Shown here: piece after piece, positions 4,152-62,187 of the stretch
How the letters are laid out: each line of letters begins with the position of its first letter
How positions within the stretch are numbered: position 1 is the stretch's first letter
Program-made: the position numbers and the translations under genes
The notes under the pieces: generated by a model
What the model was told of the DNA's origin: nothing
The model's input: the letters and a program-made list of their open reading frames with translations, nothing else
The model's database searches: none
From: Deltaproteobacteria bacterium
Lineage (GTDB): Bacteria; Desulfobacterota; Binatia; HRBIN30; JACQVA1
Assembly: GCA_016178705.1 (NCBI GenBank)
Contig: JACOST010000028.1
Coordinates: 4,951-68,950 of the forward strand
DNA: 64,000 bases
Reading direction: 5' to 3'

Positions 4152-4752
4152 GACTCTGTGCCAGTGTCGCCCGTTCAGCCGGCGGGACATCCGACAGCGC
4201 GGCGTGCTGACTGAGCTGGAGCGCTCGTATGTAGGCGACGATCGCCCAGCGATCGGTGACGGGAATTTGCGACGTGTAGTCGGGCATCGCGCCGAAGCCA
4301 CGGCTGATGACATCGAAAACGTAGCCCGGCGCGGTAGCGCGCAGCCGGTCGATGTGCAGCGACGGCGGACGGCGATAGCCGCGGCGCACGATCATGCCCT
4401 CGCCGTTGCCGAGGCGGTCATGGCAGGGCGAGCAATAGATGTCGTAGCGTTCCTGTCCGCGATCGAGTACCTCGCGCGTGATCGGGAGCGGGAAGGTGGC
4501 CACGAAGTCCGCACCTGACTTGCCGGTGTGCAGCGCGTCGTCATCGTCGAGATGGCCGCGCGCGACCGTGTCGGGCACCAGCGGCCGTGACGCACGGCCG
4601 TCGTCGAAGAACGGACTCGATTTGAGCGGCTTGTACTTCGGCTGATCGTGCATGTCCTGCCGACAGCCGGCGAGTAGCAACAGGGCGAAAAGGCAGATAG
4701 CAGATGGCTGATGGCGAATCGCTCCCTTTAGCCGATCTGCGGCGTGCGACAT
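4144..4752 (-). CDS. actE: Alternative complex III subunit ActE, monoheme cytochrome c lipoprotein
   Basis: Single CSPCH heme-binding motif. Lipobox LLLAGC. Confidence 0.75.
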   Translation of the reverse strand: MSHAADRLKGAIRHQPSAICLFALLLLAGCRQDMHDQPKYKPLKSSPFFDDGRASRPLVPDTVARGHLDDDDALHTGKSGADFVATFPLPITREVLDRGQERYDIYCSPCHDRLGNGEGMIVRRGYRRPPSLHIDRLRATAPGYVFDVISRGFGAMPDYTSQIPVTDRWAIVAYIRALQLSQHAALSDVPPAERATLAQSHD

Positions 4753-4779
4753 GCGACGAGTGACCACGCGCGTCTTCAG

Positions 4780-4820
4780 ACAATCCGCAATCCCCAATCC
4801 GCAATCCGCAATCATCAATG
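4780..4820. repeat. AATCCGC heptamer array (about 5 units) at the actD/actE junction
   Basis: caatccgcaatccccaatccgcaatccgcaatcatcaatg. Confidence 0.8.
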
Positions 4821-5351
4821 CTCCACCTCGCTGATTGAACGCGGCACCTGCCGCTCGAGAAAGCGGCGCGTCGTGTCGCGATCGAACAGCGGATCGGTGC
4901 CTTCGATGCACAGGAAGAAGCGGTCGCGCGTCGCCAACGCGAAGCGCGGCACGTTGAACACCGGGTGATACGGCATCGGCAGCCCATTGAGCGCGAGCAT
5001 CCCGAGCACCGCCGTCAGCGCCGCGACCAGCACGGTGCACTCGAACGTGATCGGGATGAACGACACCCAGCTATGGAACGGCCGGCCGCCGACGTTGATG
5101 GGATACTCGATCACCGATGCCCAGTACTGCAACCCGTACCCGCCGAGCCCGCCGAGGATGCCGCCGATGAGCACGAGCAGCGGCAGGCGATTGTGATGGA
5201 AGCCGAGCGCCTCCGACACTTCTTCGATCGGATACGGCGTGTACGCATCGAGCTGGCGGTAGCCCGCCTCGCGGGCGCGGCGCACCGCGGCGATCAATTC
5301 GTTCGGTTCGCTGAACTCGGCCATCAGGCCATGGATCGGCGGTCGCTTCAC
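4815..5351 (-). CDS. actD: Alternative complex III subunit ActD (DUF3341-type membrane protein)
   Basis: 178 aa. TM segment GGILGGLGGYGLQYWASVIEYP. 4-bp overlap with actC. Confidence 0.7.
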   Translation of the reverse strand: MKRPPIHGLMAEFSEPNELIAAVRRAREAGYRQLDAYTPYPIEEVSEALGFHHNRLPLLVLIGGILGGLGGYGLQYWASVIEYPINVGGRPFHSWVSFIPITFECTVLVAALTAVLGMLALNGLPMPYHPVFNVPRFALATRDRFFLCIEGTDPLFDRDTTRRFLERQVPRSISEVEH

Positions 5352-6724
5352 AGCACGCCCTCCTTGACCTCAGCCTCGGGAACGAGCGTGCGCATTTCGA
5401 AGATCGAGATCATTGGCAAGAAGCGCAGGAACAAAAACAGCAAGCTGAGGAACAGTCCGATCGTACCGATGAACGTCGTCCAATCCCAGATCGTGCCGTG
5501 GTACATGCCCCACGACGACGGCAGGAAGTCGCGGTGCAAGCTGGTGACGACGATGATGAAGCGCTCGAGCCACATGCCGACATTGACGAACAGGCAGATG
5601 ACGAAGAGCAGCGGAACAGTGGCGCGCACTTTCCGGAACCACAGCAACTGCGGCACGACCACGTTGCACACCAGCAGCGACCAGTACATCTGCGCGTACG
5701 GACCGAAGAAGCGATTGGTGATCATGAACTGCTCGTAGGGGTTGGCGCTGTACCACGCCATGAAGGCTTCCATCATGTAGCCGTAGGCCACGATGAGGCC
5801 GGTGGCGAGCATGACCCTTCCCATGTAGTCGAGATGGCGTGCGGTGATGAAGTCTTCGAGGCCGTAGGCTTTGCGCAACGGGATCGCCAAGGTCATCACC
5901 ATCGCGAAACCCGCGTAGATCGCACCGGCGACGAAGTACGGCGGGAAAATCGTCGCGTGCCACCCCGGAGTCACACCGACGGCGAAGTCGAAGCTGACTA
6001 TCGTGTGCACCGACACCACCAGTGGCGTCGACAGGCCGGCGAGCAGCAGGTACGCCGTCTCGTAGCGATGCCAATGCGTCGCCGATCCGCGCCATCCCAT
6101 CGCCAGCATGCCGTAAATGAAGCGACCGGCGCGATTCGGCGACCGATCGCGCAACGTGGCGAGGTCGGGAATCAGACCAACGAACCAGAACATCAACGAC
6201 ACGATCGCGTACGTTGACACCGCGAACACGTCCCAAATCAGCGGGCTGCGAAACTGCGGCCACACGCCCATCGTGTTGGGGTAGGGGAGCAGCCAGTAGA
6301 ACAACCACGGCCGGCCGAGGTGGAGCAGCGGGAACATGCCGGCGCATGCAACCGCGAACAACGTCATCGCTTCCGCGAAGCGGTTGATCGAGGTGCGCCA
6401 CTCCTGACGCAGCAACAGTAGGATCGCCGAAATCAGTGTGCCGGCGTGGCCGATGCCGATCCACCACACGAAGTTGATGATGTCGAAGCCCCAGCCGACG
6501 GGGATGTTGACGCCCCAGATTCCGATGCCCTCGGTGAGCAGATAGGCCACCGAGTAAAGGAACAGCATCAGCAGGCTGAACGAGATGGCGAAGCCGACGA
6601 ACCACCAACGCGGCGTCTTCCCGGTCAACACCACCGCGCTGATCTTGTCGGTGACCGAGCCGAACGTATGCCCCGGCCCGATGATCGGGGCCGTCCGAGA
6701 TTCGGGCCGCGAGTCTTGGCTCAT
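5348..6724 (-). CDS. actC: Alternative complex III subunit ActC (NrfD/PsrC-like quinol-interacting membrane subunit)
   Basis: 458 aa, ~10 TM helices, NrfD-family signature regions. 4-bp overlap with actB. Confidence 0.85.
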   Translation of the reverse strand: MSQDSRPESRTAPIIGPGHTFGSVTDKISAVVLTGKTPRWWFVGFAISFSLLMLFLYSVAYLLTEGIGIWGVNIPVGWGFDIINFVWWIGIGHAGTLISAILLLLRQEWRTSINRFAEAMTLFAVACAGMFPLLHLGRPWLFYWLLPYPNTMGVWPQFRSPLIWDVFAVSTYAIVSLMFWFVGLIPDLATLRDRSPNRAGRFIYGMLAMGWRGSATHWHRYETAYLLLAGLSTPLVVSVHTIVSFDFAVGVTPGWHATIFPPYFVAGAIYAGFAMVMTLAIPLRKAYGLEDFITARHLDYMGRVMLATGLIVAYGYMMEAFMAWYSANPYEQFMITNRFFGPYAQMYWSLLVCNVVVPQLLWFRKVRATVPLLFVICLFVNVGMWLERFIIVVTSLHRDFLPSSWGMYHGTIWDWTTFIGTIGLFLSLLFLFLRFLPMISIFEMRTLVPEAEVKEGVL

Positions 6725-10771: not shown

Positions 10772-12043
10772 ATGCCGATGGCAATGCAGCCGAGACCAGA
10801 GGCGGCGCCGCGTCATGTGGCGCTGGTGATGTCGGGCGGCGGGGCGCGCGGCGCATACGAAGCGGGGGTGCTCTCGTACTTGTTCGGCGATCTCGCGGCG
10901 CGACTCGGTCGGCCGATTCACTTCGACATCGTGACCGGCACAAGCGTGGGCGCCGTCCACGCCTGCTACGTCGCGGCGACGCAACAAGAGCCCGACGCGG
11001 GTACACGCCTGACGGAGATCTGGCGCTCGCTGTCGTTCGAACGCATTTTCGAAATCGGTGCCACCGACGTGTTCCGCGTGCCGTGGCGGCTATTGGGCTT
11101 CGGAGGGCTCGGCGACTGGCTGCCCGCAAGCGACGAGAGTGCGCCGAAGCGCTTGCCGGGCCTGTTTGACACCGAGTCGCTGGAAGCGCTGGTGCTCGGA
11201 CGCATCGACTGGGCGCAGCTGCGCCGCAACATCGACGAGGGTGCGCTCGAAGCGTTGGCGATCGCCGCGACCGAGGTGGCGACTGGACGCTCGGTGGTGT
11301 TTGTCGACAACCAGAGCCAGACCGTGCCGCGTTGGGCGCGCGATCCGTTCGTGATCGCCCGCGCGGCGCGCATCGACGCCGACTATGCGCTGGCATCGGC
11401 GGCGATCCCGCTGGTGTTCCCCGCCGTGCGCATCGACCGCACGTATTACTGCGACGGTGGGCTGCGCCTCAACACGCCCCTGTCGCCCGCGTTGCGCTTG
11501 GGTGCCGACCGCGTGTTGGTGATCGGCCTGCGCTACCCGCGCTCGCCCGCCGAGGAGGATCGCATCGCGCGGCGGCGCGCGGCGAACTATGCCAGCCCGA
11601 CGTATCTGGTCGGCAAAGCGCTCAACGCGCTGCTGCTCGATCGCATCGAGTACGATGTCGACCGCCTGCGCTTGTTCAACGCGATTCTCGACAGCGGTGT
11701 GCGCAGCTATGGCGCCGACTTTCTCGTCCGCATCAACGAGCCGATCATCGCGCAGCGCAACACGCCGTACCGCATCGTGCGCGATCTATTTCTGCGGCCG
11801 TCGAAAGACCTGGGCGCGATCGCCGGCGAGTGTCTGCGCCATCAGCCGCGTAGCCACGGCCTGCGCGATTGGCTCAGCCGCAACGTCGCCCGCTACGCCG
11901 CCCGCGGCGCGATGGCTGAAGCGGATCTGCTCTCGTACCTGTTCTTCGATCGCTGCTACGCCGAGCACCTGATCGATCTCGGGCGTCACGACGCCGAGCA
12001 GGCAGCGGATGAGTTGATCGAGTTTCTTTCGATTGCGGATTGA
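10772..12043 (+). CDS. Patatin-like phospholipase
   Basis: GGGARG oxyanion motif and GTSVG (GxSxG) nucleophile. Confidence 0.85.
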   Translation: MPMAMQPRPEAAPRHVALVMSGGGARGAYEAGVLSYLFGDLAARLGRPIHFDIVTGTSVGAVHACYVAATQQEPDAGTRLTEIWRSLSFERIFEIGATDVFRVPWRLLGFGGLGDWLPASDESAPKRLPGLFDTESLEALVLGRIDWAQLRRNIDEGALEALAIAATEVATGRSVVFVDNQSQTVPRWARDPFVIARAARIDADYALASAAIPLVFPAVRIDRTYYCDGGLRLNTPLSPALRLGADRVLVIGLRYPRSPAEEDRIARRRAANYASPTYLVGKALNALLLDRIEYDVDRLRLFNAILDSGVRSYGADFLVRINEPIIAQRNTPYRIVRDLFLRPSKDLGAIAGECLRHQPRSHGLRDWLSRNVARYAARGAMAEADLLSYLFFDRCYAEHLIDLGRHDAEQAADELIEFLSIAD

Positions 12044-12062
12044 GGATTGCGGATTGCGGAAT
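12031..12062. repeat. GCGGATT heptamer array spanning the patatin stop codon, between convergent genes
   Basis: gattgcggattgaggattgcggattgcggaat. Confidence 0.8.
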
Positions 12063-12534: not shown

Positions 12535-13683
12535 ATGCGACGGGACATCTTCAGCGCGGAGCACGAGTTGTTTCGCGATCAGTTCAAGCGCTTCGCCGAG
12601 AAGGAGATCGCGCCGAAAATCGAAGGCTGGAATGCGCGCGGCATGAGCGACCGCGAAACCTGGCGGCGCGCGGGCGTCGCAGGGTTTCTCGGCGCCAACG
12701 CGCCGGTCGAGTACGGCGGCGCCGGCGGCGACTTTCTCTACGATGCGATCGTGATGGAGGAGCTGGCGTGGCTGCGCGCGCACGCGATGATGATCTCGCT
12801 GCATTCGGACATCTGCATGCCGTACATTGCGACCTACGGTTCGGAAGCGCAGAAGCGCAAGTACCTTCCCGGTGCGATCAGCGGTGATCTCCTGCTCGGC
12901 ATCGCGATGACCGAACCCGGCACCGGCTCCGATCTCGCCAACGTGCAGACCAAAGCCATCCACCACGGCGATCACTACGTGCTCAACGGGTCGAAGACGT
13001 TCATCTCGAACGGCCAGATCGGCGACCTGTTCATCGTCGTGGCGAAAACCGATCCCGACGCCAAGCCCGCGCACAAGGGCATCAGCCTGCTGCTCGTCGA
13101 GGCCGACCGCCCGGGCTTCGTGCGCGGCCGCAAACTCGACAAGCTCGGCCTGCGCGGACAAGACACCAGTGAGTTGGCGTTCGAAGACTGCACCGTGCCG
13201 GCCGAGAACCTGCTCGGCAAAGCTGGGCAGGGCTTCAAGATGCTGATGGAGAAACTGCAGCAGGAACGGCTGTCGATCGCGGTGGCGTCGATCGTGTCGT
13301 GCCGCCGCGCGCTCGCCGACACCATCGACTACGTGAAACAACGGCGGGCCTTCGGCCGCGCGATCGCCTCGTTCCAGAACACGCAGTTCAAGCTCGCCGA
13401 GCTGGCAACCGAAGTCGAAATCGGCCAAGCCTTCGTCGACAAGTTGTTGGTAGCGCACGTGCGCGGCGAGGAGATCGTCACCGAAGTGAGCATGGCGAAG
13501 TGGTGGACCACGGATTTGCAGAAGCGCCTCACCAGCGAGTGCGTCCAGTTGCACGGCGGCTACGGCTTCATGCACGAATATCCGATCGCCACCGACTACG
13601 CCGATGCAGCAGTGCAAACGATCTATGCCGGCACCAACGAAATCATGAAGGTGATCATCGCGCGGCGAATGGGGCTCGAATAG
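12535..13683 (+). CDS. Acyl-CoA dehydrogenase
   Basis: Full ACAD architecture, including GTNEIMKVIIARRMG at the C-terminus. Good RBS AGGAGGA. Confidence 0.9.
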   Translation: MRRDIFSAEHELFRDQFKRFAEKEIAPKIEGWNARGMSDRETWRRAGVAGFLGANAPVEYGGAGGDFLYDAIVMEELAWLRAHAMMISLHSDICMPYIATYGSEAQKRKYLPGAISGDLLLGIAMTEPGTGSDLANVQTKAIHHGDHYVLNGSKTFISNGQIGDLFIVVAKTDPDAKPAHKGISLLLVEADRPGFVRGRKLDKLGLRGQDTSELAFEDCTVPAENLLGKAGQGFKMLMEKLQQERLSIAVASIVSCRRALADTIDYVKQRRAFGRAIASFQNTQFKLAELATEVEIGQAFVDKLLVAHVRGEEIVTEVSMAKWWTTDLQKRLTSECVQLHGGYGFMHEYPIATDYADAAVQTIYAGTNEIMKVIIARRMGLE

Positions 13684-13782
13684 TAGGCAGTAGGCAGAAG
13701 GCAGAGGGCAGTAAGAAGGTGAAGGACGGACCAGCGGGGCAGGGCGGGGACTGCATACTGCCTACCGCCTACTGCCTACTAC
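13681..13782. repeat. TAGGCAG heptamer array starting on the acd stop codon, plus its inverted copy. The pair forms a long potential hairpin between acd and xthA
   Basis: tagtaggcagtaggcagaaggcagagggcag ... ctgcctaccgcctactgcctacta. Confidence 0.8.
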
Positions 13783-13786
13783 GCGC

Positions 13787-14554
13787 ATGAAGATCGCGAC
13801 CTGGAACGTTAACTCACTGCGCGTGCGGCTGCCGCTGCTGATCGAGTGGCTCGCCACGGTGCAACCCGACGTGGTGGCTCTGCAGGAGACCAAACTCGTC
13901 GACGATGATTTCCCGGTCGCCGAAATCGAGGCGGCGGGCTATGACGCGGCGTTCGCGGGGCAGAAGACCTACAACGGCGTCGCGGTGCTCAGCCGCGGTG
14001 CGATCACCGACGTCGAACGCGATGTGCCCGGGCTCGACGACGTGCAGCGCCGCTTGCTGGCCGCGACCACCGGCGGCGTGCGGGTGATCAACGTGTACGT
14101 GCCGAACGGTGAGCACATCGGCTCAGACAAGTACGCCTACAAACTCGACTGGCTCGACAATCTGACGGCGTACGCCGCGGCGCAGCTTGGCGCTCATCCG
14201 CGTCTGGTGTTGCTCGGCGACTTCAACATCGCTCCGGAGGAGCGTGACGTGTACGATCCGAAAGAATTTCAGGGGCAGGTGCTGTTCAGCGAGCCCGAGC
14301 GCGCGGCTTTTCGCCGGCTCCTGGCGAGTGGACTCACCGACACGTTCCGCTTGTTCGAGCAGGCCGATCGCAGCTTCAGTTGGTGGGACTATCGAATGAA
14401 CGCGTTCAAGCGCAATCGCGGGTTGCGCATCGACCACGTCCTCGCCAGCTCGGCGCTGCGCGCCGCCTGTGTCGCCTGCCGCATCGACATCGAACCGCGC
14501 CGCCGCGAGCGGCCTTCGGATCATACGCCGGTGATGGCGGAGTTCGAAGGATGA
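13787..14554 (+). CDS. xthA: Exodeoxyribonuclease III (AP endonuclease)
   Basis: [18 protein letters not shown]...ALQETK...RIDHVL...DHTPV, the EEP-family catalytic motifs. Confidence 0.9.
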
Positions 14555-34715: not shown

Positions 34716-35335
34716 CCTGCACGCGTGTCGCAAGCGACGACGAGCGGCATTCAATTCCGTGTGCGGAGGACGGAACGGACGAGAGCGTGAAAGCGGCGGC
34801 AGCGAAAGATCAGTCAGACTACGACGCGCTCTTCCGGACGCACCATGCGCGCGTCGTGCGCTTGTGCCGACTCTTGCTCTCCGATCCAGACGAGGCTGAT
34901 GACGTGACGCAGGAGGTTTTTCTCAAATTGTTCCAAGCCTGCGAAAAATTGTCTCAAGCCTACGAACTGGGCGATCGTGAGATTGCCTGGGGAGCGTGGC
35001 TCACCCGGGTTGCCGTCAACGGGTGCCGGGATCGGCGACGCTCGGGCTGGTGGAAGTGGTGGCGCGAACGGCACGAGGAGTTTGCGGAAGCCAACCTACC
35101 GTCGGCGACACTCAACCCCGAGCAGCAGACGCTGAGTAACGAAGCCCGGCGCGGAATCTGGCGATGCTTCCGACAGTTGTCGGCGCGGCAGCAAGAAGTG
35201 TTCGCCTTGCGCCAATTGGAAGGCTGGTCGACCGAAGAGGTAGCGCAAACGCTCGGGCTGAGCCCAGGCAGCGTCAAGCGTCATCTCTATCGAGCGGTCC
35301 ATCACATGCGCACCGGGCTGGGAGGTTACCGATGA
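34712..35335 (+). CDS. ECF (sigma-70 family) RNA polymerase sigma factor (start uncertain)
   Basis: Region 2 DVTQEVFLKLF. Region 4 LSARQQEVFALRQLEGWSTEEVAQTLGLSPGSVKRHLYRA. Confidence 0.8.
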   Translation: MTCTRVASDDERHSIPCAEDGTDESVKAAAAKDQSDYDALFRTHHARVVRLCRLLLSDPDEADDVTQEVFLKLFQACEKLSQAYELGDREIAWGAWLTRVAVNGCRDRRRSGWWKWWRERHEEFAEANLPSATLNPEQQTLSNEARRGIWRCFRQLSARQQEVFALRQLEGWSTEEVAQTLGLSPGSVKRHLYRAVHHMRTGLGGYR

Positions 35336-35860: not shown

Positions 35861-36358
35861 ATGTTGAAGTCCAAACTGCTGTTCACCGGGTTGGTGTTGG
35901 CCAGCCTGACCTCGGCTCCGCTGCACGCGCAACCGATGGGCGGACCTCCGATGGGCGGACCGCCGATGGGCCGCATGATGCACGGAGACGATCCGGCGAT
36001 GATGCTCCACATGGTCCTCAAACAGGCCAATCTCACAGCCGACCAGCAGGATCAGGTGCGGAAAATCATGGACGCCGATCATCAGAATTTGCGCGCGCTG
36101 TTTTCGAAATTGGAGGCGGCCAACCGTCAGTTGGCCGATAAGCTGTTTGGCCCGGGAACGGTCCAGCCGGCCGACTTGACGCCGCAGGTGCAGCAGATCA
36201 CCCAGCTCCGACAACAGTTGATGGAGCAAGGCGTGAAGACCGCCTTAGCCGTGCGGGCCGTGCTCAGCCCGCAACAACTGGCCAAGGTTGCGCAGACCAA
36301 AGATCAACTCGAGAAGCTGCAAACGCAGATGCGCAATATTATCGAGGGCAGCGACTAA
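35861..36358 (+). CDS. Periplasmic LTXXQ-motif protein (CpxP/Spy family) with a Met-rich segment
   Basis: Signal peptide. MGGPPMGGPPMGRMMHGDDPAMMLHM. LTADQQDQ / LTPQVQQ / LSPQQL. Confidence 0.75.
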   Translation: MLKSKLLFTGLVLASLTSAPLHAQPMGGPPMGGPPMGRMMHGDDPAMMLHMVLKQANLTADQQDQVRKIMDADHQNLRALFSKLEAANRQLADKLFGPGTVQPADLTPQVQQITQLRQQLMEQGVKTALAVRAVLSPQQLAKVAQTKDQLEKLQTQMRNIIEGSD

Positions 36359-36556: not shown

Positions 36557-36723
36557 CGTCGAGGTCGGCGCTCTGGGCCACACCCCAGAACGCCTGGTCG
36601 TCTCGACCATCCCACACTTGGCTTCGGTTGTGGTGACCGCGCGCGCTTGATTTGGGCGCCGAGCTGGATTCGGGACGCGTCTCCGTCTATCTACGCGGCA
36701 CGCGCAACGAAGGGAGATGCGAC

Positions 36724-37104
36724 ATGAGTAGCGACCCCCATTTGCAGCTGGCTGAACGCCTAATGGCCGCGATCATGGCGGGCAACGTCGACGAGGTGCG
36801 CCACATCTACGCGCCGAACGCCGTGATCTGGCACAACAACGACAACCTCGAGCAATCGGTCGATGAGAATCTCGCGGTGCTCGGGTGGGTGGTGAAGCAC
36901 GTCTCGAATCTGCGCTACGAGATCATCCGGCGACAACGCATGGACAGCGGCTTCGTGCAGCAACACGTCCTGCGCGGCACCGCTCCGAACGGCAAGCCGC
37001 TCGAAGTGCCGGCGTGCTTGGTGTGCACGGTGCAGGACGGCCGCATCACGCGGCTCGACGAGTACCTCGACACCGCGCATCTCGCGCCGCTGGTACAACA
37101 GTAG
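36724..37104 (+). CDS. SnoaL-like / ketosteroid-isomerase-like (NTF2 fold) protein
   Basis: 126 aa. RLMAAIMAGNVDEVRHIYAPNAVIWHNN pattern. Confidence 0.6.
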   Translation: MSSDPHLQLAERLMAAIMAGNVDEVRHIYAPNAVIWHNNDNLEQSVDENLAVLGWVVKHVSNLRYEIIRRQRMDSGFVQQHVLRGTAPNGKPLEVPACLVCTVQDGRITRLDEYLDTAHLAPLVQQ

Positions 37105-37115
37105 GCAGTAGGCAG
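37101..37115. repeat. TAGGCAG heptamer pair incorporating the stop codon of 36724..37104
   Basis: gtaggcagtaggcag. Confidence 0.7.
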
Positions 37116-37133
37116 TTGCGAGCCAAGGGGAGA

Positions 37134-38647: not shown

Positions 38648-39925
38648 ATGCCGCGAGTTCGGACGCGGGCGGGGACGCCCGCGCTACCAAGAAGAAAGAC
38701 GACGGGACGATCGCGGCAGTGGCCGGCTGAAGGCAACTGCCGTATCCCGTTCTGGGTCTATTCCGATCCCGCGATCTACGCGCGTGAGCAGGAACACATC
38801 TTTGGCGGCGCGAGCTGGTCGTACGTCGGGCTGACGGCTGAGATTCCCAAGGCGGGCGACTTCAAGCGTACCTTCATTGGCGATCAGCCGGTGGTGGCCG
38901 TGCGCGATGGTGAGGGCGGCATCAATGTCGTCGTCAATCGCTGCGCGCACCGCGGCGTGCAATTCTGCCGCGTCAATTTGGGCAACGCCAGCGAGTTCAT
39001 GTGCCCCTATCATCAGTGGACCTACGATCTGCGCGGCAACTTGATCGGCGTGCCGTTCCGCAAGGGGCTGCGACGGCAGGGCGGCATGCCGGACGACTTC
39101 ACGTTGGCAGATCATTCGCTGCAGCAGTTGCGCGTTGCCGAGCGCCACGGCGTCATCTTCGCCTCGTTTGCCGCGGCGATGCCGTCGCTCGAAGACTACC
39201 TCGGCGCCGCGATGCTCGCGTACCTCGACCGCGTCTTCGATGGCCGCGCGCTGCGCGTGCTCGGCTACATGCGGCAAGTGATTCCAAGCAATTGGAAGCT
39301 GATGTTCGAGAACATCAAGGACCCGTACCACGCCAGCCTGCTGCACGTGTTTCTCGTCACCTTCGGATTGTTTCGTGCGGATCAACCGTCGGCGGTGCAG
39401 ATGGATGACAGCGGCCGCCACGCCGCGCTGATCTCGCGCCGCGGTGAGCAGCCGCCGTCGGCGGGGACGGCGGAGATGAAATCGTTTCTCGCTGACTTCA
39501 AGCTGAACGATCCGACGCTGCTCACGCCGGTGAAGGAATTCCCCGGTGACGCGACCGTCGTGATGCAAACGATTTGGCCGAACCTGATTGTCCAACAACA
39601 ATCCAACACCCTCGCCACGCGCCAGTTGGTCACTCGCGGACCGGACGCGTTCGAGTTGGTGTGGACCTTCTTCGGCTACGAGAGCGACAGCGCGGAGATG
39701 ACGCAGATCCGGTTGCGCCAGGCGAATCTGATGGGACCGGCCGGCCTGGTGTCGATCGACGATAGCGAGATGATGGAGTTCTCGCAGGCCGGAGTGTCGT
39801 CCGCGGACGCCGGCGCCGCTGTGATCGAACTCGGCGGGCGCGACGCCGCCAACACCGACCACATGATCACCGAGACCGCGATCCGCGGCTTCTATCGCTA
39901 CTACCGCGAGGTGATGGGCTTGTGA
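38648..39925 (+). CDS. Rieske non-heme iron ring-hydroxylating oxygenase, alpha subunit (start uncertain)
   Basis: Rieske CAHRG...CPYHQW. Catalytic domain with conserved His/Asp. Confidence 0.8.
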   Translation: MPRVRTRAGTPALPRRKTTGRSRQWPAEGNCRIPFWVYSDPAIYAREQEHIFGGASWSYVGLTAEIPKAGDFKRTFIGDQPVVAVRDGEGGINVVVNRCAHRGVQFCRVNLGNASEFMCPYHQWTYDLRGNLIGVPFRKGLRRQGGMPDDFTLADHSLQQLRVAERHGVIFASFAAAMPSLEDYLGAAMLAYLDRVFDGRALRVLGYMRQVIPSNWKLMFENIKDPYHASLLHVFLVTFGLFRADQPSAVQMDDSGRHAALISRRGEQPPSAGTAEMKSFLADFKLNDPTLLTPVKEFPGDATVVMQTIWPNLIVQQQSNTLATRQLVTRGPDAFELVWTFFGYESDSAEMTQIRLRQANLMGPAGLVSIDDSEMMEFSQAGVSSADAGAAVIELGGRDAANTDHMITETAIRGFYRYYREVMGL

Positions 39926-39943
39926 GTAGTAGGCAGACGGCAG
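39926..39943. repeat. TAGGCAG-like heptamers immediately after the Rieske alpha stop
   Basis: gtagtaggcagacggcag. Confidence 0.65.
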
Positions 39944-39958
39944 TGGGAGGAAGGGCCG

Positions 39959-40448: not shown

Positions 40449-40501
40449 GGGTAAATTTGCGGGCAAATTTGCCGGCAAAATTTGCGGGCAAAATTTGCGG
40501 G
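40449..40501. repeat. Tandem 13-mer array (GCGGGCAAAATTT-like), ~4 units
   Basis: gggtaaatttgcgggcaaatttgccggcaaaatttgcgggcaaaatttgcggg. Confidence 0.8.
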
Positions 40502-44665: not shown

Positions 44666-47600
44666 TCAGTCCGCATCCCACGCGACCGCGTGGATTCGCT
44701 GCGGTTCGGTGATGCCCTTGAGCGCTACCTCGCGAGGCGCGCCGAAGCGCGCTGCCGTGTCGCCGGTGGCCGCCTGCAACGCCGCCGACACCAGGATCTC
44801 ACCGCCTTGCGCCGTGCCGGCGATGCGCGCGGCGAGCACGACGTTCTTGCCGAAGAAGTCGTCGGCCTCGCGAATCACTTCGCCGGCGTGCAAACCGATG
44901 CGGACGCGCAACGGCTCGTCCGCATGCCGTTGATTGTAGGCGGTGAACCCTCGTTGCATGGCGATGGCGCAGTGCAGGGCGCGCCGCGCACTCTGGAAGA
45001 CGATCATGAAACCATCGCCTTGCGATTTCACTTCGACGCCGTTGTGGGCTGCGACGTGCTCGCGCACGATCGCGTTATGGGCGCGCAACACGTCGAGCCA
45101 TTTTCGGTCGCCGAGACGCTCGTTGATCACGGTCGAACCCTCGATGTCGCTGAACATGAGCGTGACCGAGCCGTCGCTCGCCGCAACCGAACGCAGATCG
45201 GGGCGGTGGCGTTGCACGTCCGCGGCGACGACCTCGATCGAGGTGGTCATCGTGCCCGACTCCACGCCTTGCGCGCGCAGCTTGAGTGCCAGCGCCATGT
45301 CGAGCCAGCCCTTGAGCCCGAGTTCCTGCGACGTGGCGAGCGCCGCGCCGAGAAGGACGCGCGCCTGCTCACGATCGCCCGGCCCGTCGCGGTCGAGCCG
45401 CATGCGAGCGTAGTCGATCTGCGTGCGCGCTTCCCACGCGCGCGCGCCGAGCCGGCGATCCATCGCCAGCGCGTCTTCGAAGTGCCGCGCCGCGCCCTCG
45501 TAGTAGCGCATGACGCCCGCTAGGTTACCGAGGGCGCGCGTGGCTGCGCCGTAGGTGGTGGCGTGGGCAAAGTGTAGATACAGTTGTTCGTACGGCAACA
45601 GAGTCCGGTACAGCTCTTTCGCACACTCGGAGTCTCGCAGCAGCGTGCAGGTGTCGGCGAGGAGCGCAAGATTCATCAAGTAGTTGCTGTCACGTAAAGT
45701 TGCGAAGCCGGCCTGCGCGATGCGATCGAACTCCGCCCGCGCTTCCGCGTCGCGAGCGAGCTCGGCTAGGTAGCAGGCGAGATGGATGGAGTAGCCCTCG
45801 ACATTCGGGTACAGATCCCGGCCGCGGCGGGTGCCGCGTTCGACCTCGGTCAACCGACCTTGGAAGCGCCGCAGCGCGCCGACCTGCGTAACGAAGACCT
45901 GAAATGCTGCTTCGGGCGCATGCTCTCGTCGCCCCAATGCGGCCTGAATGCACCGTTCCGCTTCATCGAGATGGCCTCGCCACAGAGCGCGGTCAGCCAA
46001 CGTCTGATCCACAATGCGGACGAAGTCCCGTTGTCTGAGCTCGACCGCCAGACGCTGCAAATGAACAAGCTCACGATCCACGCCTTCGCCGTCTCCGCTC
46101 CGAATGCACTCGCGGAGGATGTTGGTCCGCGTGCGGAACTCCTGCTCGCGGTCACCGGTCTCGACAGCCAAACGCAGCGACTCGGTCAACAAGCCCCGCC
46201 GCTCGTCGCTCCGTACCGACAAGCCGAGGAAGAACACGCTGGCTTGCAAATGAATGGCAACCCGGAGCGACTCAGGGTCGTCAATCGAGCGCGCCAGGTC
46301 GATCGCATGCCAGAGTCGAGCATCCCGGTCGTCATTCGTTTCGACCCAACCGCGGACCACCGTGAGCGCGTACAGTATCCGCACGCGCAGCAGGGTGGGG
46401 GCATCTCCGAGTCGCTCCATCGCCTCGTTGAGAGCCTGGCTGCGCTCATCGATCGCGGACATGCTGAAAGGCGTCCCCACATTAATGGCCAGCCCGAGCG
46501 CGGCCCGCGCGAAGAGTTCCGCGTCATCCAGTTCGCGTGCGAGTGCGAGTGCACGCCGATCAGCCTCGTCCGCCTTCGGCACCGAGCCGGAGCAGATTTC
46601 CGCCGTCGCGAGCGCGAGCAGGATCTCGCACCGGCGCCGGCCGTCGACGGTCGTGCCGACCTCAAGAGTCTGCAACGCCCGCTCGTAGTGGTTGGCGGCT
46701 TCCTCGAAGGCGAGCAGGGCGCTCGCGCGCTCGGCGGCGCGCACCGCGTAGTCGACGGCCTTGCCGACGTCGCCGCCGGGCGCGGCCTCGCAGAAGTGAT
46801 GCGCCAGCTCGGCGAGATGCGGCTCGGGCTTGGTGCCGTAGAGCGCTTCGAGCACCTCGGCGGCGCGGCGATGTGAGCGAATGCGCTGGGCAGTGCGCAG
46901 CTCGCCGTAGAGCGTCTCGCGGATCAACGCGTGCGAGAAGCGGTAACGGCCGGCAACCGGCGGCAGCGGGGCGATGATGCGTGCGGCTTCGGCTTCATCG
47001 AGCGCTTCGGCAACTGCGTCGACGGACAATTCACTGACGCCGGGGAGCACGCGCAGCTCGAACTCACGACCGAGTACCGCCGCGATCGTCAGCACCTGGT
47101 TGCAGCGTTCGGAGAGCGTGCTGAGTCGCCGGCCAATCACTTGCCGGACGCCTTGCGGAATCTCGACGCTCCACGATGCCACGGTGTCGGCTCGATCGAG
47201 ACGCCCGTCCGACTGTAAGAGGCGCACGACCTCGGTGATGAAGAAGGGATTGCCTTCGGTCTCGCGGTACACCGCCTCTACGAGTGCAGGTGGTGGTGTA
47301 CGGCCGGCGGTCAACTCGATGAAGCGCGCCACGTCGTCGCCGCTCAAACCGCGCAACAGCACACGTTCGCCGCGCTGATTGCGTACCAATTCGGCGAGCG
47401 TCTGTTCCAGCGGATGCTGGCGGCCGAGCTCGACGTCGCGATAGGTCCCCATCAGCAGCAGACGGGCGTCGCCGATTTCCCGCGCCAGGAATTCGAGCAA
47501 CAGTAACGACGGCTTGTCCGCCCAATGGAGATCGTCGAGCACGACGACCAGCGGTTTGGCGCGCGATGCGTTCCTGAGAAACGTGGTGACGCTTTCGAAC

Positions 47601-49147
47601 AGGCGGAACCGCGCTTGTTCCGGTTCGAGCCGGGGAGCGACCGGCAAGCCCGGTAATCGGTCCCGCACCTCGGAGACCACTTCGGCGATGTCGGCCGCGC
47701 CCGGACCCATCTCCGCGGCGAGCAGTTTCGGTTCGCGCGTGTGCACATAGGCGCGGATCGCGTTGACCCACGGCCAATACGCCGGCGCGCCCTCGCCTTC
47801 GTGGCAACGCCCCCACAGCACTTGCGCGCCACGCATCTGCGCGTAGGTGGCGAGTTCTTCCGCGGTGCGGGTCTTGCCGATACCAGGTTCGCCGACGAGG
47901 AGAAGAATCCGGCCGCGGCCGGAGAGTGCGTCATCGAAGGCGGCGCGCAGTTGCTGGGTTTCCTTGTCGCGCCCCACGAAAATGCCGCTGGCGAGGCGAT
48001 CCAGTGGATTCACCGCCGGGCTTGACGCTGGTATCACTCCGGCGACGGCGCTCGGAGCGTTGGCGATTTGCGCGAGTCGCTCGCCAACGATCGCCGCGCT
48101 GGCGGGGCGCTGCGCTGGACTCTTCGCGAGCAATTGCAAGGTGAGCGCTTCCAGCTCGCGCGTGATGGCTGGATTGTGCCACGAGGGCGCGACCGGCGGT
48201 GTGTTGATGTGTTGGCTGATCACCGCGACCACATCGTCACCGAGAAAGGGTGGCCGGCCGGTCAGCAATTCGTACAGCAGTGCGCCGAGCGCGTAGAGGT
48301 CGACGCTGGCAGTCACCTCGCCGGACAGGGCCTGTTCAGGTGCCATGTAGGCGGCAGTGCCGACCATCGTCCCCATCTGCGTCAGGCGCGTCTGATCAAT
48401 GTCGAGCGCGAGACCGAAGTCCCCGAGCTTGGCGCTGCCGTCAGCGGCGAGCCACACGTTGCCGGGCTTGAGGTCGCGATGGATGACGCCTCGTGCGTGC
48501 GCGTGATCGAGCGCGAGGCAGATTTGCTGGGCGATGCGCAGGGCGTCGGTGATGGATAGGGGTGCACGGCTATGCGCCGCTACAGACTCTTCGCTGCCTA
48601 CTGCTCTCTGCCTACCGCCTACTGATTCACGCAGCAGATCATCCACGCTGCCGCCAGCCATGTACTGACTGACGATGTAGGCTTGTCCGTCCTCCTCGCC
48701 GATGTCGAAAACGGTGACGATGTGGGGATGATCGCCAAGCCGCGCCATCGCTTGCGCCTCGCGCTGAACGCGCGCGCGGCCCGCGTCGTCGAGCCCTTCG
48801 GTTTTGATCAACCCGAGCGCGACGTCGCGATCGAGCCGATGGTCGCGGGCGAGGTAGACGCGCTTGCGCGCGCCTTCGCCGAGGAGGCGCTGCACCCGAT
48901 AACGTCCGGAGGCGAAGGCAGCAGGCAGGTTGTTCGTGGTTAGGTTGTTGGTTGTTTGTGGAGGAGGGGCACTACCGATTGCGGTCGGCGTACCGGCTCC
49001 CAGTGAGGCACCACATTCGCCGCAGAACTTCTCTCCCGACTCGTTGAATGCTTGGCACTGTGGGCAGCGCAGCGCGAGCAGCGCGCCGCAGTCCGAGCAG
49101 AACATCCGACCTTCACGATTGTCGCGACCGCACGTTGCGCAACGCAT
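44666..49147 (-). CDS. Multidomain signalling protein: N-terminal double zinc-ribbon, Ser/Thr protein kinase, AAA(AAA_16-like) ATPase, TPR region and C-terminal class III adenylyl/guanylyl cyclase
   Basis: CxxC x4 at the N-terminus. HRDLKPGNV and DFGLA kinase motifs. LLVGEPGIGKTRTAEEL. C-terminal VTLMFSDIEGST...GDGFMIVF...RIGLHAGEV cyclase motifs. The ATPase-TPR core is ~collinear with the two regulators at 19-28 kb. Confidence 0.85.
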   Translation of the reverse strand: MRCATCGRDNREGRMFCSDCGALLALRCPQCQAFNESGEKFCGECGASLGAGTPTAIGSAPPPQTTNNLTTNNLPAAFASGRYRVQRLLGEGARKRVYLARDHRLDRDVALGLIKTEGLDDAGRARVQREAQAMARLGDHPHIVTVFDIGEEDGQAYIVSQYMAGGSVDDLLRESVGGRQRAVGSEESVAAHSRAPLSITDALRIAQQICLALDHAHARGVIHRDLKPGNVWLAADGSAKLGDFGLALDIDQTRLTQMGTMVGTAAYMAPEQALSGEVTASVDLYALGALLYELLTGRPPFLGDDVVAVISQHINTPPVAPSWHNPAITRELEALTLQLLAKSPAQRPASAAIVGERLAQIANAPSAVAGVIPASSPAVNPLDRLASGIFVGRDKETQQLRAAFDDALSGRGRILLLVGEPGIGKTRTAEELATYAQMRGAQVLWGRCHEGEGAPAYWPWVNAIRAYVHTREPKLLAAEMGPGAADIAEVVSEVRDRLPGLPVAPRLEPEQARFRLFESVTTFLRNASRAKPLVVVLDDLHWADKPSLLLLEFLAREIGDARLLLMGTYRDVELGRQHPLEQTLAELVRNQRGERVLLRGLSGDDVARFIELTAGRTPPPALVEAVYRETEGNPFFITEVVRLLQSDGRLDRADTVASWSVEIPQGVRQVIGRRLSTLSERCNQVLTIAAVLGREFELRVLPGVSELSVDAVAEALDEAEAARIIAPLPPVAGRYRFSHALIRETLYGELRTAQRIRSHRRAAEVLEALYGTKPEPHLAELAHHFCEAAPGGDVGKAVDYAVRAAERASALLAFEEAANHYERALQTLEVGTTVDGRRRCEILLALATAEICSGSVPKADEADRRALALARELDDAELFARAALGLAINVGTPFSMSAIDERSQALNEAMERLGDAPTLLRVRILYALTVVRGWVETNDDRDARLWHAIDLARSIDDPESLRVAIHLQASVFFLGLSVRSDERRGLLTESLRLAVETGDREQEFRTRTNILRECIRSGDGEGVDRELVHLQRLAVELRQRDFVRIVDQTLADRALWRGHLDEAERCIQAALGRREHAPEAAFQVFVTQVGALRRFQGRLTEVERGTRRGRDLYPNVEGYSIHLACYLAELARDAEARAEFDRIAQAGFATLRDSNYLMNLALLADTCTLLRDSECAKELYRTLLPYEQLYLHFAHATTYGAATRALGNLAGVMRYYEGAARHFEDALAMDRRLGARAWEARTQIDYARMRLDRDGPGDREQARVLLGAALATSQELGLKGWLDMALALKLRAQGVESGTMTTSIEVVAADVQRHRPDLRSVAASDGSVTLMFSDIEGSTVINERLGDRKWLDVLRAHNAIVREHVAAHNGVEVKSQGDGFMIVFQSARRALHCAIAMQRGFTAYNQRHADEPLRVRIGLHAGEVIREADDFFGKNVVLAARIAGTAQGGEILVSAALQAATGDTAARFGAPREVALKGITEPQRIHAVAWDAD
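48594..48624. repeat. TAGGCAG-like heptamer array embedded in-frame inside the kinase domain of 44666..49147
   Basis: ctgcctactgctctctgcctaccgcctactg encodes VGGRQRAVGSEE on the minus strand. Confidence 0.7.
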
Positions 49148-49233: not shown

Positions 49234-49623
49234 TCACGCTGTCTTCAGGCCCAAATGGTCGACCATCGGATCGAAGTCGCGATCGGAGTAGAGCAGCGGC
49301 AATTTCCGCTCAATGCAGTAGGTGCCGATCATCACGTCGACCGTCTTTCGCACCGTCACGCCGGCGGCGCGCAGCGCGCGGTAGTTGCGTGCGGCGCGAA
49401 CGGCCAGGGTAGGACCGAACATGCTGACCACGGGGAACACTCTGAGCAGGCGGTATGCACGGCCAAACGCCTGCTCGCTCCGGAAACCTTGTAACACCTC
49501 GGTCAGCACGAGATCACCAATCACGATGGGTTGCTCTCCGAGCGCTTCGTGGAGTCGGTCGGTTTGCGGTGTCGCGCGACCGTTGAAGTAATCGATCCAC
49601 ACCGACGAATCGACGGCGATCAT
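49234..49623 (-). CDS. vapC: Type II toxin VapC (PIN-domain ribonuclease)
   Basis: MIAVDSSVWIDYF...TEVLQG...PIN acidic residues. 4-bp overlap with the upstream antitoxin. Confidence 0.85.
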   Translation of the reverse strand: MIAVDSSVWIDYFNGRATPQTDRLHEALGEQPIVIGDLVLTEVLQGFRSEQAFGRAYRLLRVFPVVSMFGPTLAVRAARNYRALRAAGVTVRKTVDVMIGTYCIERKLPLLYSDRDFDPMVDHLGLKTA

Positions 49624-49820
49624 GCACGGCCATCGGCTCGCATGGCGTCCAGATCACCCTCCCAGCGCAGCTTGCCGCGCCACGCCTTGAGCGCGCGCTG
49701 GCGTTGCAAGCGCACGAGCACGCGGAGCCCTTCCTCCACAACGGCTCGCTTGGTCCGGATGCCGGTGGCTCGCTGCGCTGCGGCGATCAGCTTCTCATCA
49801 ATCACGATGTTGGTTCGCAT
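49620..49820 (-). CDS. vapB: Type II antitoxin VapB
   Basis: 66 aa. MRTNIVIDEKLIAAAQRATG. RBS GGGGAGA. Confidence 0.75.
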   Translation of the reverse strand: MRTNIVIDEKLIAAAQRATGIRTKRAVVEEGLRVLVRLQRQRALKAWRGKLRWEGDLDAMRADGRA

Positions 49821-50015
49821 GCATCTCCCCTCGATGTGTATGAGCGAGCATACGTATACACACTCTTGGTGCGAGCGACAACGATTTCGTTCTATGCAGG
49901 ATGGCGGCGAGAAACGTGCGGCGACGCCGAATCGCCGCACCGCGAGGATGCGCTCGGAGGCGTGATCGAGGCGGGCGATGCCAGAACGACATCGCCCGCC
50001 CGTGTGTGCGGATGC

Positions 50016-62155: not shown

Positions 62156-62187
62156 ATTCCGCAATCCGCATTCCGCAATCCACAATG
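62156..62187. repeat. AATCCGC-like heptamer array, followed by the hairpin gggctgcgggcgtcagcccgc
   Basis: attccgcaatccgcattccgcaatccacaatg. Confidence 0.75.

Follow-up and report, generated by a model that had tools for sequence, protein, structure and literature searches.

A degenerate TAGGCAG array within the kinase domain of a bacterial signaling protein, probably a fixed remnant of a heptanucleotide repeat

Several heptanucleotide SSRs are known from bacteria, including the cyanobacterial STRR, the GGGAATC repeats of Xanthomonas, the GGGGA(C/T)T repeats of Nostoc and the TAACTGA repeats of Beggiatoaceae and cyanobacteria. The TAGGCAG arrays described here resemble them in that they are dispersed tandem arrays of 7-nt units with few units each, and they are unlike G-quadruplex-forming repeats in that TAGGCAG does not form G-quadruplexes. 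In the "forward" TAACTGA repeats each of the three frames contains a stop, and these repeats commonly overlap the stop codon that ends the preceding gene; intragenic copies of TAACTGA are rare and sit at the protein periphery (PMC4679880). The intragenic Beggiatoa copies are in the stop-free "reverse" orientation and lie mostly at protein ends, whereas the array that we found in a kinase gene is in the stop-containing orientation, lies in the middle of the catalytic domain and has its in-frame TAG mutated. A search of the accessible literature for tandem TAGGCAG repeats returned only unrelated matches, in three eukaryotic (mouse/human) papers.

In-frame insertion of repeats into genes has also been described. 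Rickettsia palindromic elements (RPE) are genome-wide repeats inserted in frame into unrelated genes at fold-compatible sites (PMC10969869). The kinase array shares with RPE, MITE and REP elements an in-frame insertion compatible with the fold, but RPE are palindromic, ~150 bp long and encode a conserved peptide, whereas the kinase array is a 31-nt direct tandem repeat without an inverted repeat or hairpin. Hairpin-type insertions do exist at the same kinase loop in relatives, namely in the homolog P0086 and in a paralog from the related genome L203. The report on Borgs (PMC9879509) describes tandem repeats, intergenic as well, that add disordered segments inside ORFs, and its abstract calls them recently formed and rapidly evolving. 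The likeness lies in between-gene tandem repeats that also occur in ORFs and add disorder there. The kinase array differs in being degenerate, in having a 7-nt unit that is not divisible by three and so must avoid a stop, and in its stability over the time in which two lineages came to differ at about 12% of their nucleotides.

The protein that carries the array combines a double zinc ribbon, a kinase, an AAA_16 STAND ATPase, helical repeats and a class III adenylate/guanylate cyclase (Table 1). Its kinase domain matches PF00069 at 9.1e-47 (160 bits, against a cut-off of 31.7), and the solved bacterial STPKs PknB and StkP match it with E values of 1e-50 to 1e-54. The catalytic residues are intact and fall in invariant alignment columns (the β3 Lys K115, the αC Glu E130, HRD at H223-R224-D225, the Asn N230, DFG at D243-F244-G245, and P270-E271 of APE), so that both the profile and the catalytic residues place the domain among the Hanks-type kinases. 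Comparison with the syntenic ortholog gave a dN/dS of 0.19 for the gene overall and, once the insert was left out, 0.16 for the kinase domain, values that point to a functional gene under purifying selection.

Since the Pfam domain spans residues 83 to 354, the array lies inside the kinase domain. On the + strand it reads CTGCCTA CTGCTCT CTGCCTA CCGCCTA CTG, and on the coding strand cag TAGGCGG TAGGCAG AGAGCAG TAGGCAG c, which is translated as ESVGGRQRAVGSEESV within an uninterrupted ORF. It agrees with a perfect (TAGGCAG)n at 27 of 31 bases over 4.4 units; an earlier, sequence-only reading had placed a TAGGCAG-type array in the kinase coding sequence with the frame intact, and in this it was correct. 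At least three units stand head to tail, as in other heptanucleotide SSRs, and a period of 7 gives the top autocorrelation within the insert (0.40 here, 0.48 in the ortholog). No two adjacent units are identical (TAGGCGG, TAGGCAG, AGAGCAG, TAGGCAG), and the variants TAGGCGG and AG[AG]GCAG are common to this copy and the arrays at 13.7 kb.

Table 1. Features of the kinase gene, TAGGCAG arrays elsewhere in the window, and independent insertions at the same loop in homologs.
Feature	Position or homolog	Strand	Description
Host gene, 1493 aa	44666..49147	−	Zinc ribbon/kinase/STAND ATPase/cyclase
Hanks-type Ser/Thr protein kinase domain	48086..48901	−	Residues 83-354, Pfam PF00069
Loop segment R173-P196, αD-αE	48560..48631	−	17 residues longer than in ~280 homologs
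Degenerate TAGGCAG array	48594..48624	− (coding)	Encodes V176-S185 (VGGRQRAVGS)
Second 7-nt-period tract, AACAACC-type	48926..48958	−	Zinc ribbon-kinase linker, encodes QTTNNLTTNNL
TAGGCAG array, left hairpin arm	13682..13713	+	Acyl-CoA dehydrogenase gene 12535..13683 terminates at the leading TAG
Inverted array copy, right hairpin arm	13750..13780	−	Ends 7 nt before gene 13787..14554
TAGGCAG array	37099..37116	+	SnoaL-like gene 36652..37104 terminates at the first full TAG
TAGGCAG array	39926..39948	+	Follows the Rieske oxygenase alpha subunit gene 38648..39925, whose stop is 5 nt upstream
Independent loop insertion	P0086		Octamer-array hairpin
Independent loop insertion	L203 paralog		REP-like hairpin
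Independent loop insertion	L141		Period-7 remnant
Independent loop insertion	P0281

The segment containing the array is an insertion relative to other kinases of the family. The spacing between YMxGG and HRDLKP is 39 to 40 residues in 279 of ~290 homologs and 56 residues here, and the full-length homologs P0244 and P0245, which are 58 to 59% identical, lack the insertion. The StkP alignment splits exactly at this loop. The sequence-only reading had proposed to map the segment onto a structural model, and the AlphaFold model shows a low-confidence loop flanked by helices 168-177 and 199-218, with pLDDT below 50 at residues 180-183 and 187-192. Homolog spacing, the StkP break and the modeled loop thus concur with the idea that the repeat was inserted into a surface loop of the kinase, in frame and at a fold-compatible position. 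From the model, the segment is predicted to form a flexible, Gly/Ser/Arg-rich surface loop of about 15 to 17 residues, which would be functionally near-neutral. The site corresponds to the "kinase insert" found in certain eukaryotic receptor kinases (PDGFR/VEGFR/KIT class). The inserts of those receptor tyrosine kinases lie between αD and αE, where large flexible insertions are tolerated; the likeness is one of structural position only, without homology, and the bacterial loop is much shorter.

We also looked at the sequence next to the array. The codons for EESVAAHSRAP, which occupy the 34 nt after it, were considered as decayed TAGGCAG units and rejected, the match not being significant (P = 0.41). 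AAHSRAP was taken as native because it aligns better with the native AExHRLP of the homologs, and an origin of array plus tail from six units is speculation. As a candidate target-site duplication of the MITE/REP/RPE type, the sequences GAATCAGTAG and GAGTCTGTAG (8/10, an ESV...ESV motif) flank 39 nt, but the second of them may instead derive from a repeat unit that has decayed; the array-likeness of the tail beside this motif was not significant. A search for an inverted partner of the array gave only short, weak matches in conserved coding sequence, and the fold at the array had no excess energy (z = +0.72), unlike a hairpin-forming element. Rfam had no family anywhere in the window, which here means the whole 64-kb stretch of DNA that was analyzed.

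The other four TAGGCAG arrays in the window are all intergenic, and three of the four stand at or no more than 5 nt after a stop codon, confirming at the three stops named in Table 1 the sequence-only observation that arrays elsewhere follow stop codons. The pair of arms forming the hairpin lies in a stretch (13676-13786) with a predicted RNA fold of −52.8 kcal/mol (z = −5.1). Strict arrays with a period of 7 numbered five in the window, and there were none with periods of 4 to 6, 8, 10 or 11. Within these 64 kb, the units therefore behave as an SSR family that is dispersed, mainly intergenic and found at gene ends.

Insertions at the kinase loop have occurred repeatedly. Among the ~290 homologs there are at least four independent ones (Table 1), most of them visibly built from repeats, and the nearest relatives of the homologs that bear them have no insertions. 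The suggestion that the locus is a repeat-driven indel hotspot is thus upheld on the evolutionary scale (at least four events in ~290 homologs) and fails for present-day length variation. Orthologs were recovered with a full-length query, which returned the protein itself and orthologs at 87% and 75% identity; an N-terminal query of 349 aa had yielded only fragments of at most 67% identity and missed the true orthologs, and a metagenome scan gave nothing closer than 67%. The 75% ortholog, P0243, has an insertion of nearly equal length without TAGGCAG units, and the distance from LL to a conserved L is 24, 24 and 25 residues in the query and in the 87% and 75% orthologs, respectively. At the DNA level, homology of the query insert with the inserts of P0243 and L141 was marginal (P = 0.05 and 0.012) and came mostly from the native tail, and P0243 and L141 were the only pair with clear homology. 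A single ancient insertion behind all three was not demonstrable from the DNA, and several events are favored because of the nearest-neighbor analysis. Since P0243 has an insert without units, the TAGGCAG array may not have created the insertion but arisen inside one that was already there, by replacing its sequence or by expanding in it.

The units within the gene show how the reading frame was kept open. Because the 7-nt unit is not a multiple of three, an array in the kinase gene has to avoid a stop: a sense array presents a TAG in every frame per 21 nt, so it can survive only if the codon-aligned unit is no longer TAG. Units 1, 2 and 4, which are not codon aligned, retain TAG, and the only unit without it is the codon-aligned unit 3, where TAG would be a stop: its triplet is AGA in this gene and AGT in the orthologous one. 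The same array occurs in frame in the arginyl-tRNA synthetase gene of a Thermoguttaceae MAG, a planctomycete, where both codon-aligned units, and no others, have GAG in place of TAG. Since this planctomycete is unrelated to the bacterium bearing the kinase, it is an independent case of the same stop-avoidance rule.

Could the array be a chance resemblance or an assembly artifact? TRF at a score of at least 30 did not report it, and a search with a 28-mer consensus allowing up to three mismatches missed it because it has four, one over the limit. We instead scanned at a threshold of at least 17 matches in 21, which found the array and the four others in the window and nothing in ten shuffles. 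Exact TAGGCAG occurs nine times in the window against 2.1 expected, a count that no shuffle reached, and by our own arithmetic a chance 28-mer with at most four mismatches is expected ~3e-6 times per 128 kb. The ortholog has an even better copy (TAGGCAG TAGGCAG AGTGCAG TAGGCAG), and three assemblies agree, the sequence being identical in a Logan assembly and in a second NCBI MAG, so an assembly artifact was rejected. We accordingly give practically no weight to chance or artifact, since the copy in the ortholog and the agreement of independent assemblies refute this reading. A further reading, raised by the sequence-only account as possible phase or length variation, is that of a contingency locus in which 7-nt slippage toggles the kinase frame or the loop length within populations. 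It is consistent with a unit indivisible by three, a single-unit change of which shifts the frame, and with the intergenic siblings, since the array at 37099..37116 is 29 nt longer and that at 39926..39948 is 14 nt (two units) longer in L203, a polymorphism in unit number. The array in the kinase gene, however, has not varied. The second MAG is identical in its arrays, with one mismatch and no gaps over 24,482 nt (99.996% identity over 24.5 kb), the syntenic ortholog in L203 (88.2% nucleotide identity) has an array of equal length with two substitutions, so that neither three assemblies of one population nor the 88%-identical ortholog differ in length. Nor is the tract long and near-perfect, as those of contingency loci are; slippage should be rare because no two adjacent perfect units are present. 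A one-unit change would truncate a gene under purifying selection that encodes a large cytoplasmic signaling protein, and phase-varying genes are usually surface or restriction genes. At the level of the assemblies compared, a present-day phase-variation switch is not supported, and we regard a contingency locus as highly improbable.

The array could also have been retained for what it encodes or for its nucleotide sequence. If the loop were selected for protein function, such as regulatory phosphorylation or docking, the repeat would be no more than its raw material. The loop is exposed and rich in Ser and Arg, its length has been kept across the 87% and 75% orthologs, and dN/dS within the insert is 0.31, which is below 1 but comes from a tiny sample of 24 codons. 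The loop sequence, however, is not conserved in P0243, and most members of the family work without an insert, which makes selection for protein function unlikely; were it to hold, it would be compatible with an origin from a fossil repeat. A function of the mRNA or DNA, for example one by which the kinase transcript is attenuated or cleaved internally, would be suggested by the 11 array codons, which show no synonymous and two nonsynonymous differences from the ortholog and retain the rare codons GTA, AGG and AGA. About two to three synonymous changes are expected there at a dS of 0.375, and the deficit is not significant (P about 0.07 by our own estimate). It could be a hint that the nucleotide sequence itself is constrained, or that gene conversion takes place with other arrays, instead of simple coding drift. 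Across phyla, gene ends bearing the array in the sense orientation only outnumber those with antisense only by 54 to 6, and this strong bias suggests that orientation matters; it is, however, simply explained if the stop-rich strand is harmless at gene ends. P0243, the more distant ortholog, keeps the loop with none of the units left, folding predicts no stable structure at the array, and Rfam families were unmatched. We therefore consider a nucleotide-level function very unlikely; its candidate would be a binding or processing site for a factor that recognizes the TAGGCAG arrays at gene 3' ends.

TAGGCAG arrays occur in Acidobacteriota, Planctomycetota, Bacteroidota, Mesorhizobium, Chloroflexia and Binatia. 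That they constitute a cross-phylum, strand-oriented 3'-end element whose genic copies are kept at the nucleotide level is a doubtful proposition, and we think it quite unlikely. Were it so, the arrays may spread actively or be recognized by a conserved factor, and the genic copies in the kinase and arginyl-tRNA synthetase genes may still act as regulatory or processing sites within those genes, or gene conversion from the intergenic arrays may renew them. At five GTDB loci, the open frames that run antisense through arrays (on the CTGCCTA strand) resembled spurious ORFs of high-GC DNA or a 5' UTR, and a "sense" case at L074 was a spurious ORF.

The data identify the repeat, show that the segment is an insertion and where it lies in the fold, and show that it is stable among the genomes compared and that insertions recur at this site; from this we infer how the array may have arisen. 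In our view, the segment is likely to be what remains of a heptanucleotide SSR array, now fixed and translated as a loop, and not a phase-variation switch. The bacterium, a Binatia-like MAG filed at NCBI as "Deltaproteobacteria bacterium", is rich in tandem 7-nt arrays, which lie at gene 3' ends with the stop-containing strand, TAGGCAG, as the sense strand. One such array would have joined the coding sequence of the Ser/Thr kinase, either by slippage growth in place or by copying from elsewhere, in the αD-αE loop, where additional residues would leave the fold undisturbed. It would now evolve as weakly constrained coding sequence, with its number of units frozen, as the units have degenerated too far for slippage and the frame survives only if three are gained or lost at a time.

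No new mechanism is involved, as heptamer repeats near stops and in-frame repeat insertions have both been described. The locus offers instead a clean and datable example of noncoding simple repeats turning into protein sequence: the donor family is still visible beside stop codons within the same 64 kb, the insertion point is a known permissive loop of the kinase fold, and the single in-frame stop is gone. Three genomes compared side by side show that the array froze once it was genic, while its intergenic siblings kept varying in length. Loss of TAG confined to the codon-aligned units provides a simple signature by which captured arrays can be sought across whole genomes. Annotators should note that low-complexity loops in proteins of uncultured bacteria, AVGSRQ being one example, can be repeat derived, and that they need not mean pseudogenes or misassemblies.

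A second tract with a 7-nt period, of the AACAACC type, was found in the same gene upstream of the kinase domain (Table 1). TRF reported period 7 at 48928-48956, and the consensus scan also detected the tract. Residues 52-72 of the linker have an AlphaFold pLDDT below 50, and in the ortholog the tract is of equal length but has diverged in sequence.

The heptamer tract at 48594-48624 reads CTGCCTA CTGCTCT CTGCCTA CCGCCTA CTG on the + strand and cag TAGGCGG TAGGCAG AGAGCAG TAGGCAG c on the coding strand, where it is translated as ...LLRESVGGRQRAVGSEESVAAHSRAPLS.... The sole long ORF of this region (44666..49147, - strand) encodes a protein of 1493 aa. From the position of this ORF and the Pfam domain limits (Table), the tract lies inside the protein kinase domain, as the sequence-only reading had it; in the homolog alignment the kinase has the full set of catalytic residues. 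The same gene has a second tract of 7-nt period, AACAACC-type (48926-48958, - strand), encoding QTTNNLTTNNL in the low-confidence linker from zinc ribbon to kinase. Its ortholog counterpart, LTANTVTTNNL, is equal in length and diverged in sequence.

In an alignment of 32 homologs with the first 349 aa of the protein, a 17-residue gap stood opposite the query insert, except in P0086, a homolog with an insertion of its own at this site. The spacing from YMxGG to HRDLKP was 56 residues in the query, compared with 39 to 41 in the top 120 matches, and was 39 to 40 in 279 of about 290 homologs from three pooled searches. The closest solved structure, the StkP kinase, aligned in two pieces that skipped query-domain residues 98-119. 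Since an HRD motif at 223-225 follows helices 168-177 and 199-218 in the AlphaFold model (mean pLDDT 82), these helices are alphaD and alphaE; pLDDT was below 50 between them, at 180-183 and 187-192. The homolog gap and spacing support the proposed insertion into a kinase loop, and the structural mapping puts it in the low-pLDDT alphaD-alphaE segment, where the StkP alignment breaks.

To recover the query protein itself (P0241) and its closest relatives, the full-length 1493-aa query was needed; with a 349-aa fragment as query, the matches were short partial proteins only, and the self-match and the 87% and 75% orthologs were missed. P0242, a syntenic ortholog on a 324-kb JGI contig, was 87% identical, P0243 was 75% identical, and the many remaining homologs were at most 59% identical. 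The acyl-CoA dehydrogenase of the window was 100% identical to an NCBI protein encoded on an 850-kb contig of a 'Deltaproteobacteria bacterium' MAG, and 82 to 86% identical to Candidatus Binatia proteins. A protein from a second MAG (P0361), in the query's 90% cluster, differed at 1 of 1493 residues. The corresponding locus (L206) showed one substitution and zero gaps over 24,482 nt, with every array, coding and intergenic, identical to the window, and a Logan assembly of SRR12113411 encoded a protein identical to the query. The ortholog locus in a related genome, L203, was 86 to 92% identical at the nucleotide level (88.2% across the kinase gene). Its coding array, TAGGCAG TAGGCAG AGTGCAG TAGGCAG, encodes VGSRQSAVGS and differed from the window's by two substitutions, with equal length and register, whereas the intergenic arrays at 37099 and 39930 were longer in L203 by 29 nt and 14 nt (two units), respectively. 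Between the window and L203, the TAGGCAG family thus changes at intergenic sites and is frozen within the kinase gene. The phase or length variation suggested earlier for the coding array was not supported, since the segment did not differ in length in L206, the Logan assembly or L203. Comparison with the ortholog gave a dS of 0.375, a dN of 0.072 and a dN/dS of 0.19 for the gene (0.16 for the kinase domain without the insert, 0.31 for the insert), and the gene is under purifying selection.

P0243 had an insertion at the same site, one residue shorter than the query's, with no TAGGCAG units but with its strongest autocorrelation still at period 7 (0.43). P0244 and P0245 (58 to 59% identity to the query) lack the loop insertion. 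The insertion is older than the split from P0243, and the TAGGCAG units are either original to it or a later arrival within it. Array likeness in the 34 nt after the coding array was not significant; judging from the alignment, the native counterpart of the AAHSRAP residues is probably AExHRLP.

The TAGGCAG strand carries one TAG per 21 nt in every frame. Numbering the coding-strand heptamers 1 to 4, only unit 3 of the recognizable array is codon-aligned in the kinase frame. It deviates the most of the four, reading AGA in the window and AGT in the ortholog in place of TAG, which is retained by units 1, 2 and 4. Because TAG-less variants (AAGGCAG and AGGGCAG) are present in intergenic arrays too, a copy like TAGGCAG TAGGCAG AGGGCAG TAGGCAG could have been open in the kinase frame from the start.

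Insertions at the alphaD-alphaE loop were found in the clade of the query, P0242 and P0243; in a pair of mutual nearest relatives at 81%, L141 and a tandem paralog from L203; in P0281; and in P0086. Since the nearest neighbors of P0281 and P0086 are without insertions, the sequences indicate at least four independent events. In the P0086 insert, a spacer separates four GGGTTCAA octamers from four inverted TTGAACCC units, and the 43-residue insert of the L203 paralog contained the inverted repeat CCCTCTCC...GGAGAGGG. The L141 insert had a period of 7 (autocorrelation, 0.49) and the P0281 insert a period of 3 only. Elsewhere in the kinase domain, insertions of 6 or more residues occurred only in the beta4-beta5 and beta7-beta8 loops, where they were shorter and some were likewise repeat-coded. 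Structural tolerance is a sufficient explanation for this recurrence at loops, and no DNA-level targeting need be assumed.

Short beta4-beta5 or beta7-beta8 inserts in other homologs (L145, L190, L135, P0092, P0119 and P0015) encode PSTSSGRA or PSTGSGRA (DNA CCTTCGACA[AG]GCTCAGG...) or carry a CCCCC...GGGGG hairpin, and they resemble widespread repeated DNA motifs copied in frame. The L203 paralog repeat is REP-like (..PHPNPLPEGEG..). This extra tandem paralog (1521 aa; L203:5431-9996, JGI Ga0373620_0000021) occupies the position of the PIN (VapC) gene of the VapBC pair in the window (49234-49940). The P0086 gene (L002, JGI Ga0210102_1014258, 159-1688) has ACACCCG-type heptamers in its post-kinase linker, and the same heptamer recurs upstream of it (88-109).

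The window contained 9 exact copies of TAGGCAG, with 2.1 expected, and no shuffle had as many as 9. Eight were paired inside four arrays, namely the coding array, the one at 37099-37116 and two in mutually inverted orientation at 13682-13713 and 13750-13780; the ninth was part of a degenerate array at 39926-39948. A scan at 17/21 or better against the periodic consensus recovered the same five arrays and no others, with no match in ten shuffles; with 4 mismatches in 28, the coding array was absent from a search allowing up to 3. Period 7 is special within the window: it accounted for five strict arrays, compared with none for periods 4, 5, 6, 8, 10 and 11 and none in 20 dinucleotide shuffles. 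Other tandem repeats were an A+T-rich 13-mer (AAATTTGCGGGCA, x3.8) between two genes at 40453-40501 and those at 34925-34966 and 35933-35971, listed as 21-mer x2 and 15-mer x2.6.

The genes upstream of the intergenic TAGGCAG arrays are real (Table). The acyl-CoA dehydrogenase and SnoaL-like genes use the TAG of the array itself as stop codon, and the Rieske gene ends 5 nt ahead of its array, so the family was correctly described as lying just after stop codons elsewhere. CGGATTG, a second heptamer family with three copies, has the same placement. A GGCAGAT-type array (4692-4715) lies 66 nt from the first of these. The inverted TAGGCAG arrays, 36 nt apart between the acyl-CoA dehydrogenase gene and an exonuclease/phosphatase-family gene, are predicted to fold into a long hairpin (13676-13786; -52.8 kcal/mol, z = -5.1). 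The stop codon of the upstream gene comes from the left arm, and 7 nt separate the end of the right arm from the start codon of the next gene.

Table. Protein domains, genes and heptamer arrays
Feature	Location	Evidence or orientation	Context
Double zinc ribbon	query residues 3-46	Pfam	
Protein kinase domain	query residues 83-354	Pfam, 9e-47	
AAA_16 STAND ATPase	query residues 390-565	Pfam	
Class III nucleotide cyclase domain	query residues 1324-1478	Pfam	
Acyl-CoA dehydrogenase	12535..13683	Pfam match reaching C-terminus	upstream of TAGGCAG array
SnoaL-like protein	36652..37104	Pfam match reaching C-terminus	upstream of TAGGCAG array
Rieske oxygenase alpha subunit	38648..39925	Pfam match reaching C-terminus	upstream of TAGGCAG array
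CGGATTG array	4781-4819	sense	at or just after ActD stop
CGGATTG array	12031-12060	sense	at or just after patatin-like protein stop
CGGATTG array	62158-62186	sense	at or just after S9 peptidase stop
Arginyl-tRNA synthetase array	L035:5153-5189 (ORF 4527-6317)	sense, in frame	Thermoguttaceae MAG JAFZAL010000050.1

Heptamer repeats near stops, in-frame repeat insertions and repeat-made disordered regions are already described. Heptameric repeats are over-represented in Xanthomonas and Nostoc, on the sense strand within 50 bp of stop codons and in variable unit number (PMC4692102). TAACTGA repeats provide stops in three frames and overlap upstream stop codons (PMC4679880). Rickettsia palindromic elements are the classical in-frame insertion of repeated DNA in genes (PMC10969869), and disordered regions created by tandem repeats have been described in Borgs (PMC9879509). 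TAGGCAG as a bacterial repeat unit was not found in the searchable literature. Unlike TAACTGA copies within ORFs, which are rare, peripheral and in reverse orientation (PMC4679880), the array studied here is in the stop-bearing orientation, and the persistence of that orientation in the middle of a catalytic domain is the unusual detail.

Exact (TAGGCAG)3 was present in at least 120 GTDB genome stretches from many phyla, against a chance expectation, by our own arithmetic, of about 0.3 for this 21-mer. These loci (L003-L122) include Acidobacteriota, Planctomycetota, Bacteroidota, Mesorhizobium and Chloroflexia, and their other heptamer arrays are mostly one-base variants with a common CAGTAG core. 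Period 7 accounted for 292 of their arrays and each other period for at most 22. Of 132 arrays, 60 marked the end of an ORF 100 or more codons long, compared with 5.8% of random positions, and for many ORFs the stop codon was the array's own TAG. Orientation was sense-only in 54 and antisense-only in 6, about 9:1 at gene 3' ends. Because unselected loci from similar environments had one heptamer array per 438 kb, the (TAGGCAG)3 genomes are a heptamer-rich subset. Sense in-frame copies in genuine genes numbered 2 among 229 degenerate arrays: the kinase ortholog and a Thermoguttaceae arginyl-tRNA synthetase. In the latter, the peptide VKEAVGSRQEAVD falls at the break of the E. coli ArgRS alignment, and the array has GAG in both codon-aligned units and TAG in the rest.
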